Source of the DNA: Escherichia coli
GTDB taxonomy: Bacteria > Pseudomonadota > Gammaproteobacteria > Enterobacterales > Enterobacteriaceae
Assembly: GCF_016026235.1 (NCBI RefSeq)
Contig: NZ_CP065613.1
Reading direction: 5' to 3' (one strand)
DNA: 64,000 nucleotides
This document shows positions 7,874 through 8,689 of the stretch, piece after piece. Numbering within the stretch: position 1 is the first letter of the stretch; every line of letters begins with the position of its first letter. Both the position numbers and the translations under genes were made by a program. The notes under the pieces were generated by a model. That model made no database searches. It saw only the letters and a list, made by a program, of their open reading frames with translations, and had not been told where the DNA came from.

Positions 7874-8689
7874 GTGGCGCGGATAAACCGTATTTCGATC
7901 ACACTCTGTGCTTTACTTTTTACCACCCTGCCTTTAACGCCTATGGCCCATGCTTCAAAGCAAGCCAGGGAGAGTTCTGCTACCACTCATATCACCAAAA
8001 AAGCAGATAAAAAGAAAAGCACGGCAACCACCAAAAAGACCCAGAAAACAGCGAAAAAAGCCGCCAGTAAAAGTACGACCAAAAGCAAAACCGCTTCTTC
8101 CGTTAAAAAATCTTCCATTACCGCTTCTAAAAACGCCAAAACTCGCAGCAAACACGCCGTCAATAAAACGGCCTCAGCCAGCTTTACCGAAAAGTGTACC
8201 AAACGTAAGGGCTATAAATCGCATTGTGTGAAAGTCAAAAATGCCGCGTCAGGAACTCTTGCCGACGCGCACAAAGCGAAGGTGCAAAAAGCTACGAAAG
8301 TGGCAATGAATAAACTGATGCAGCAAATTGGTAAGCCATATCGTTGGGGTGGCAGCTCACCGCGTACCGGTTTTGATTGCAGCGGCCTGGTTTATTACGC
8401 TTATAAAGATTTGGTGAAAATTCGTATTCCGCGTACGGCGAATGAAATGTATCACCTGCGTGATGCAGCGCCAATCGAACGTAGTGAACTGAAAAACGGC
8501 GACCTGGTCTTTTTCCGTACTCAGGGACGCGGCACAGCCGATCATGTCGGCGTGTATGTCGGCAACGGCAAATTTATTCAGTCACCGCGCACAGGTCAGG
8601 AAATTCAAATCACTTCTCTCAGTGAAGACTACTGGCAGCGCCACTATGTTGGCGCTCGTCGGGTAATGACCCCAAAAACACTTCGCTAA
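7874..8689 (+). CDS. mepH: NlpC/P60 peptidoglycan endopeptidase (MepH/YdhO) with signal peptide and Lys/Thr/Ser-rich linker
   Basis: 271 aa ORF, GTG start, N-terminal signal peptide, low-complexity K-rich region, C-terminal NlpC/P60 motifs (DCSGLV..., H, ...). Confidence 0.88.
   Translation: MARINRISITLCALLFTTLPLTPMAHASKQARESSATTHITKKADKKKSTATTKKTQKTAKKAASKSTTKSKTASSVKKSSITASKNAKTRSKHAVNKTASASFTEKCTKRKGYKSHCVKVKNAASGTLADAHKAKVQKATKVAMNKLMQQIGKPYRWGGSSPRTGFDCSGLVYYAYKDLVKIRIPRTANEMYHLRDAAPIERSELKNGDLVFFRTQGRGTADHVGVYVGNGKFIQSPRTGQEIQITSLSEDYWQRHYVGARRVMTPKTLR

Follow-up and report, generated by a model that had tools for sequence, protein, structure and literature searches.

The lysine-rich N-terminal tail of the Escherichia coli endopeptidase MepH: composition, conservation and possible roles

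Introduction

What might a peptidoglycan endopeptidase gain from a long, strongly basic N-terminal segment of very low sequence complexity? The question is raised by a 64,000-nucleotide (nt) stretch of Escherichia coli DNA (RefSeq assembly GCF_016026235.1, contig NZ_CP065613.1), referred to in what follows as the window, which contains mepH (ydhO). E. coli has three redundantly essential "space-maker" endopeptidases, MepH among them. A preliminary description of the window, made from its letters alone, had noticed that the signal peptide of MepH is followed by some 80 residues rich in lysine, threonine, serine and alanine, and had taken these to be probably a flexible cationic tether ahead of the NlpC/P60 domain. 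No paper in the literature that was searched, papers on MepH and NlpI included, addresses the function of this N-terminal region. The gene and the segment in question (aa, amino acids) are the following.

7874..8689, + strand: mepH (ydhO) coding sequence with a GTG start, 271 aa plus stop, identified by its open reading frame (ORF), a RefSeq annotation with the same start and the Pfam family PF00877.
7955..8191, + strand: polycationic, K/T/S/A-rich, predicted disordered tail, aa 28-106, net charge +19, delimited by composition, charge conservation, the predicted structural model and the lack of a Pfam domain.

Our best explanation, which we hold tentatively and with rather less than even confidence, is that the tail is a polycationic disordered arm in which charge and not sequence is selected; we infer that it has an affinity for the anionic envelope, chiefly for peptidoglycan.

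The gene and the composition of its tail

The gene is the known, E. coli K-12-type MepH (YdhO), an NlpC/P60 protein of MEROPS family C40. Its product in the window is 100% identical to WP_000101193.1, the 271-aa RefSeq MepH of strain 25-07338, and does not differ from the MepH of E. coli K-12. The name given to the gene in the preliminary description is thus the one that the locus carries in annotated E. coli genomes, where the RefSeq label is "peptidoglycan DD-endopeptidase MepH" and the gene order is grxD<->mepH-sodB. Of 5426 complete E. coli genomes, 5425 contain the mepH region (approximately 1.3 kb), matching it at 95-100% identity. (In one genome the region lies at two places, the second copy being on an E. 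coli record classed as a plasmid.) The NCBIfam equivalog model for MepS, NF008096, is not reached by the window's protein (86 bits against a cut-off of 186); MepH is a paralogue of MepS, not MepS itself.

The Lys/Thr/Ser-rich, low-complexity segment is real, and the interval 7950-8200 (aa 26-109) that was first assigned to it brackets the zone well. Residues 28-130 are 25% lysine, 16.5% serine, 16.5% threonine and 15.5% alanine, and in 25-residue windows over aa 41-85 these four amino acids together make up 92-96% of the chain. In the same windows the Shannon entropy is 2.0-2.3 bits, against 3.5-3.9 bits in the catalytic domain, and the net charge is +7 to +10 per window. With average E. coli residue frequencies assumed, the chance probability of finding at least 23 K/T/S/A residues among 25 is about 3e-12, and that of at least 20 lysines among 79 residues about 2e-10, so that a chance origin is ruled out. 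The tail also stands out locally: among 63 stop-free stretches of at least 150 aa in the 64-kb window it has the lowest 50-residue entropy (2.44; the next is 3.00) and the highest net charge (+17; the next is +13). It has three sub-parts: aa 28-41 form a near-neutral lead, aa 42-49 a conserved KK(A)DKKKS box and aa 49-104 a hypervariable core; the peptide originally quoted as typical of the segment, KKADKKKSTATTKKTQKTAKKAASKSTTKSKTASSVKK, is MepH aa 42-79 verbatim.

The DNA of the tail is as lopsided as its product: 42% A, 29% C, 16% G and 14% T, with an AT skew that reaches +0.52, a strongly periodic codon composition and six runs of five or six A. No tandem arrays were found in it by TRF (minimum score 30) and no families of direct repeats, so that a recent repeat expansion is rejected.

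A free N-terminal tail

Where the tail stands in the protein matters for what it could do. Four further features define its setting.

7874..7954, + strand: Sec-type signal peptide, aa 1-27 (MARINR, a hydrophobic core, then AHA before S28), from sequence reading.
8183..8239, + strand: TEKC-x9-C-VKVK beta-hairpin, aa 104-122, with C108 and C118; invariant columns, predicted strands 104-109 and 117-122, predicted local distance difference test (pLDDT) score 71-79.
8258..8320, + strand: conserved helix, aa 129-149, before the catalytic core; predicted model, pLDDT above 90 from aa 131.
8330..8662, + strand: NlpC/P60 catalytic domain, aa 153-263, with C169, H224 and Q236; Pfam and fold matches.

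That the segment follows a signal peptide, as first described, agrees with the conserved AXA-type cleavage site (A25-H26-A27 before S28) and with the expression of mature MepH as residues 28-271 by Voedts et al. (bioRxiv 10.1101/2021.02.12.430937). An alignment of 48 Enterobacteriaceae MepH sequences, which is the orthologue set used throughout, shows 75% conservation of the signal peptide; A27 hardly varies in it and S28 not at all. There is no lipobox of the form [LVI][ASTVI][GAS]C; the sole early cysteine, C12, lies in ITLC within the hydrophobic core of the signal peptide. In aa 28-152 there is no transmembrane anchor, and a Pfam search of that region alone returned no domain at E<=10, hence no LysM, SPOR, SH3b, OmpA-like or PG_binding match. 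For the whole protein, NLPC_P60 is the sole Pfam match above threshold; a sub-threshold match to "Presenilin" (E 0.007) was set aside as a low-complexity artefact. With neither a lipobox nor an N-terminal domain, the segment is a free N-terminal tail once the signal peptide has been removed. The words "linker" and "tether" are accordingly imprecise, there being nothing upstream for it to join; any tethering would have to come from binding by the tail itself. The placing of the segment ahead of the NlpC/P60 domain was right as to order, but the two do not adjoin: the low-complexity part stops at about aa 105, and the hairpin (104-122) and the helix (129-149) separate it from the domain.

The hairpin is invariant in C108 and C118 (window 8195-8227) among the 48 orthologues, and the Cys-x9-Cys pair is absent from relatives of the Dickeya, Affinibrenneria and Rouxiella types. 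The two cysteines probably form a periplasmic disulfide. The hairpin has no solved counterpart. The helix at aa 129-149 is the counterpart of the extended alpha-1 of NlpI-bound MepS, the longest Foldseek alignments being to the MepS chains of 8xud and 8xup. The catalytic domain is unambiguous: PF00877 scores 125.8 bits against a gathering threshold of 23 (E 8e-37) and is covered over its full length, 1-105, while Foldseek comparison with the PDB gives a papain-like alpha+beta fold with probability 1.00, template-modelling scores (by target) of 0.8-0.9 and root mean square deviations of 1.7-3.5 A to Acd24020, MepS and LytE. C169 (FDCSG) and H224 (DHVGVY) are invariant in the orthologue set and correspond in alignment to the catalytic residues of homologues, MepS among them. 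Q236 (FIQSP; window 8579-8581), likewise invariant in 48/48, occupies the third position of the catalytic triad, which is taken by His in MepS and in the majority of solved NlpC/P60 homologues (FVHA or FIHA); the known range of the family includes Gln there. Sequence and fold matches in the PDB begin only at about aa 130, and no solved structure covers aa 28-131.

The tail is predicted to be intrinsically disordered, which bears out the flexibility first proposed for it. In an AlphaFold2 model built on an alignment of 107 diverse sequences, aa ~28-100 have pLDDT 47-58, with no secondary structure assigned by DSSP over aa 28-103, and aa 131-271 have pLDDT 91-98. (An earlier run on a shallow, 48-sequence alignment gave a mean pLDDT of 52.9, too low for a clean contrast between tail and domain.) A charge-hydropathy plot also puts the tail well inside the disordered region (H 0.36, with the boundary at 0.50), although by itself this plot is a weak discriminator, the catalytic domain being borderline on it. 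The cationic half of the original claim holds equally, with a net charge of +19.

Conservation among relatives

The tail is no peculiarity of the window. Its absence from orthologues, which would have refuted the preliminary description, is not observed. It is present in 48/48 orthologues, whose genera include Escherichia (E. albertii), Citrobacter, Salmonella, Kosakonia, Enterobacter, Leclercia, Scandinavium, Yokenella, Trabulsiella and Franconibacter, and as a segment of variable length: the core ranges from 43 to 78 residues and averages 30% identity between pairs, where the catalytic domain has 91% and is free of indels. What changes little is the bulk. The fraction of K+R is 0.27 +/- 0.02, of D+E 0.04 +/- 0.01 and of S+T 0.36 +/- 0.04, and the net charge stays between +16 and +22. 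For 861 pairs of tails at no more than 40% identity, which are not phylogenetically independent of one another, the variance of the net-charge difference is 0.21 of the value expected if the differing residues were drawn at random from the pooled tail composition. Further out, positional orthologues or relatives from Dickeya, Affinibrenneria and Rouxiella still bear cationic tails, 79-161 residues long and with net charges of +17 to +32, in which the S/T content has been lost; among these distant relatives synteny was checked for Dickeya.

One of the database orthologues, P0060 (290 aa), has a tail expanded by short imperfect repeats (KTAKTDK...KTAKTDK) near the position corresponding to window ~8090-8110, and illustrates how the length of the tail can change by slippage on short repeats.

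These comparisons suggest, at a level of confidence that we would put somewhat under even, that selection holds the bulk properties of the tail (about 80 residues, about 27% Lys+Arg, very few residues that are acidic or hydrophobic, net charge about +19) and not its sequence.

Variation within E. coli

E. coli mepH commonly occurs in two lengths, as alleles of 271 and 275 aa, and the window carries the shorter. In 60 evenly sampled rows of 5,424 genomes the 237-nt form of the tail accounts for 39 and a form longer by 12 nt for 20; a search with the window's tail matched 31 of 60 sampled genomes at 100%, and 3187 of 5424 at no less than 99%. No variation in the length of the catalytic domain was found among the E. 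coli sampled. The two alleles differ at a single site.

8040..8046, + strand: CCAGAAA microhomology at the site of a 12-nt indel, from alignments; the 275-aa allele has CCAGAAAGCCAG inserted (+QKAS).

In the longer form these 12 nt sit between two copies of CCAGAAA, that is, with a 7-nt microhomology. The long form is also carried by E. albertii and Citrobacter, so that it is likely to be ancestral, and the 271-aa allele of the window is probably a derived microhomology deletion.

Larger lesions of the gene also occur in nature, and its 5' part is missing from two complete genomes. In E. coli ST2747 a 213-nt deletion corresponding to window 7850-8062 has removed the ribosome-binding site, the start codon, the signal peptide and half of the tail; in E. 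coli TUM2805 a larger deletion leaves the last ~113 nt of the gene. Both losses fit the known redundancy of MepH.

Possible functions

Taken in the sense that we prefer, the tail of mature, soluble, periplasmic MepH would serve as a non-specific, multivalent electrostatic "sticky arm". Such an arm would keep an enzyme that has no anchor on the polyanionic envelope, through the carboxylates of peptidoglycan stem peptides and possibly through anionic phospholipid headgroups, and retention there would raise the local concentration of substrate. It may also add to the recognition of MepH by the NlpI-Prc degradation system. The arguments for a cationic arm are the pattern of conservation, the lack of any other targeting module and the cost of exporting a basic sequence. 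Sec export is hampered by basic residues early in the mature chain, and the membrane potential opposes the outward movement of positive charge. In MepH the first 14 residues after cleavage are near neutral and the Lys-rich part begins at aa 42, an arrangement consistent with such a cost; that a tail of +19 has been kept despite it argues for a function. There is also a precedent for composition-driven behaviour in extracytoplasmic intrinsically disordered regions (IDRs), namely those of Bacillus subtilis RsgI and PBP1, for which scrambled or heterologous IDRs function and for which multivalent charged and polar contacts with peptidoglycan have been proposed (PMC9732909).

Several points weigh against the cationic arm. 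No experiments on the MepH tail were found in the literature searched. The periplasm holds many anionic species, and a specificity for peptidoglycan among them is purely something that we infer. Shared ancestry means that the conservation of composition is in part inherited. A comparison of soluble with lipid-anchored NlpC/P60 relatives gave median net charges of +7 and +2.5, a trend short of significance (p = 0.08), in a test that used a crude lipobox pattern and is confounded by clade. Finally, rare E. coli database sequences (P0008, P0014, P0016 and P0045) have in-frame deletions of 10-60 residues within the tail, so that shortening is tolerated at least transiently.

A bolder version of the cationic arm would make the tail a composition-encoded, sequence-independent module for targeting to the envelope, in which a net charge of about +19 is what is selected. 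It would do for MepH what a lipid anchor does for MepS, or a membrane anchor with a LysM domain for MepM, and would set where and how processively MepH cuts, perhaps with a preference for open mesh such as has been proposed for the RsgI and PBP1 IDRs. As a whole we consider this unlikely.

It is about equally doubtful, in our judgement, that the tail is primarily a regulatory handle, recognized by NlpI (or BipP) or used by Prc as a place to begin degradation. The idea has a real basis, since the level of MepH rises more than 5-fold in a prc mutant and approximately 3.5-fold in an nlpI mutant, with MepH stabilized in both (PMC8996183), and since the 36-residue disordered N-terminus of MepS, which undergoes a disorder-to-order transition, is both necessary and sufficient for binding NlpI (PMC11211486). 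The disordered N-terminus of MepH holds the same position relative to the catalytic domain, and its KK(A)DKKKS box could be a recognition motif. However, no sequence similarity was found between the MepH tail and residues 1-36 of MepS, phmmer alignments to MepS chains starting only at MepH aa ~145-148. Nor is the N-terminal region of MepS known to be polycationic. The part of MepS that contacts NlpI, alpha-1, has its counterpart in the MepH helix at aa 129-149 and not in the K/T/S-rich part, and a specific protein interface would normally show a conserved motif, whereas the core of the tail is 30% identical and has frequent indels.

A third reading does away with binding altogether and sees the tail as a passive spacer or an aid to solubility, encoded by A-rich, repeat-prone DNA that drifts by slippage while selection does no more than keep the product hydrophilic and harmless. 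Sequence and length do turn over fast, by indels at microhomologies (the 12-nt indel at CCAGAAA) and at short local repeats (those of P0060); rare variants with tail deletions exist; and mepH as a whole is dispensable, as its natural deletions in ST2747 and TUM2805 indicate. Against this, the variance ratio of 0.21 means that net charge varies much less than it would under neutral drift at an unchanged composition, and the cationic character persists across families of the Enterobacterales while the rest of the composition shifts. A polycationic segment that is costly to export would be expected to disappear if it were useless, and the tail DNA has no tandem or direct repeat that points to recent expansion. 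On balance a purely passive spacer seems to us improbable. The cationic arm, the NlpI-Prc handle and the spacer are not mutually exclusive; they are compatible with one another.

Binding of DNA in the manner of histone H1 was considered and ruled out, the tail being exported behind a signal peptide. The likeness that suggests it, to the Lys/Ala-rich tails of histone H1 and AlgP-type proteins (KKAASK, KTAKK), is a superficial one of composition, and those tails are cytoplasmic or nuclear and bind DNA.

Comparison with known systems

The nearest parallel is MepS (Spr), an elongation endopeptidase under NlpI-Prc control in which a disordered region likewise precedes a helix and an NlpC/P60 core (PMC11211486). 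The N-terminus of MepS differs in being 36 residues long and carried on a lipid anchor, against the ~79 residues and +19 charge of the anchor-less MepH tail. In this group of enzymes MepS has its lipid anchor, and MepM a membrane anchor together with a LysM domain.

The IDRs of RsgI and PBP1 resemble the MepH tail in facing the wall, in being charged or polar and in conserving a bias of composition though their sequence is poorly conserved (PMC9732909). They differ in that RsgI (an anti-sigma factor) and PBP1 (a synthase) are membrane-anchored proteins of a Gram-positive wall with the IDR at the C-terminus, and no experiment connecting the MepH tail with the sensing of gaps was found in the literature searched.

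Low-complexity, hydroxyl-rich segments, Thr/Asn- or Ser/Thr-rich, also lie N-terminal to NlpC/P60 domains in Listeria p60 (Iap) and in B. subtilis LytE and LytF, and the NCBIfam p60 model PRK13914 aligns weakly over the MepH tail (81 bits against a cut-off of 647). Those linkers are attached to genuine wall-binding domains of the LysM or SH3 type and are not known to be polycationic. The Gram-positive NlpC/P60 autolysins have a wall-binding domain upstream; MepH is without one.

Other reading frames over the tail

The preliminary description held that the same DNA yields spurious ORFs in other frames. Three are present.

7950..8231, + strand: 93-aa ORF in the +1 frame over the tail, with a K/R/P-rich translation; spurious.
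7955..8155, - strand: antisense ORF of 66 aa; spurious.
7987..8202, - strand: antisense ORF of 71 aa; spurious.

The A-rich, T-poor and periodic DNA of the tail accounts for the open frames, of which one is sense and two are antisense. The open run in the +1 frame is 97 codons long in E. coli, 57 in Salmonella and 46 in Dickeya, and so is not conserved; both antisense frames stay open in E. coli, Salmonella and Dickeya alike, as composition predicts. The judgement that these ORFs are spurious is therefore upheld: they are artefacts of composition and no second gene is present.

The sole translations of the +1 frame over the tail are in several database proteins (P0013, P0022, P0030, P0042, P0049 and P0124), by way of frameshifts, single or paired, at A-runs (window 7997-8133); the cluster of P0030 numbers 101 members, from 36 contigs. 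Such proteins either have no signal peptide or depend on two frameshifts at homopolymer runs that offset each other, and represent genuine frameshift lesions or else homopolymer errors of sequencing or gene calling.

The extreme composition of the tail DNA, the three overlapping ORFs and the database proteins in the +1 frame might still be thought to favour a last alternative, that the tail is a local expansion, an assembly error or a mis-annotation, or that one of the alternative frames is the real gene; this is effectively refuted by the identical 237-nt tail sequence in most complete E. coli genomes, by the annotated frame, which runs from signal peptide to NlpC/P60 domain and is conserved between genera, by the inconstancy of the +1 run in Salmonella and Dickeya and by the lack of tandem repeats in the tail DNA. 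As a matter of routine, the tail is an ordinary, correctly read feature of a well-annotated, known gene.

The neighbourhood of mepH

In the window mepH is flanked upstream by grxD (7192-7539, - strand) and downstream by sodB (8817-9398, + strand), and the neighbourhood gloA-rnt-grxD<->mepH-(sodB)-ynhF-purR is common to Salmonella and Dickeya. Two candidate signals lie next to the gene.

7784..7813, + strand: sigma-70-like promoter candidate TTAACT-18-TAGAAT upstream of mepH, from a consensus scan.
8693..8722, + strand: intrinsic-terminator-like hairpin after mepH, a 13-bp stem followed by a T-rich tail.

The scan for sigma-70-like promoters found one weak site between grxD and mepH, against a mean of 1.8 in shuffled sequence, and the site is accordingly a candidate only. 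The divergent intergenic region in which it lies (7540-7873) is unusually long (334 nt) and AT-rich (fraction of G+C 0.34-0.40), and some RefSeq genomes annotate a minus-strand coding sequence for a 50-aa hypothetical protein in it. On the other side of the gene, an Rfam scan gave a sub-threshold match to the SodB 5'-untranslated-region thermometer (RF02775) at 8742-8846, immediately before sodB, which scores 31 bits where the gathering threshold is 98 (E 0.0017) and has no bearing on the tail.

Meaning for MepH and its family

At the level of DNA, the A-rich, T-poor sequence that encodes the tail yields spurious ORFs and gene calls that are prone to frameshifts. At the level of the enzyme, the tail is the only sizeable non-catalytic feature that MepH has, and how each endopeptidase is targeted and restrained is an active question. 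If the charge of the tail does position or regulate MepH, this would be a case of a Gram-negative cell-wall enzyme guided by a disordered region through its composition.

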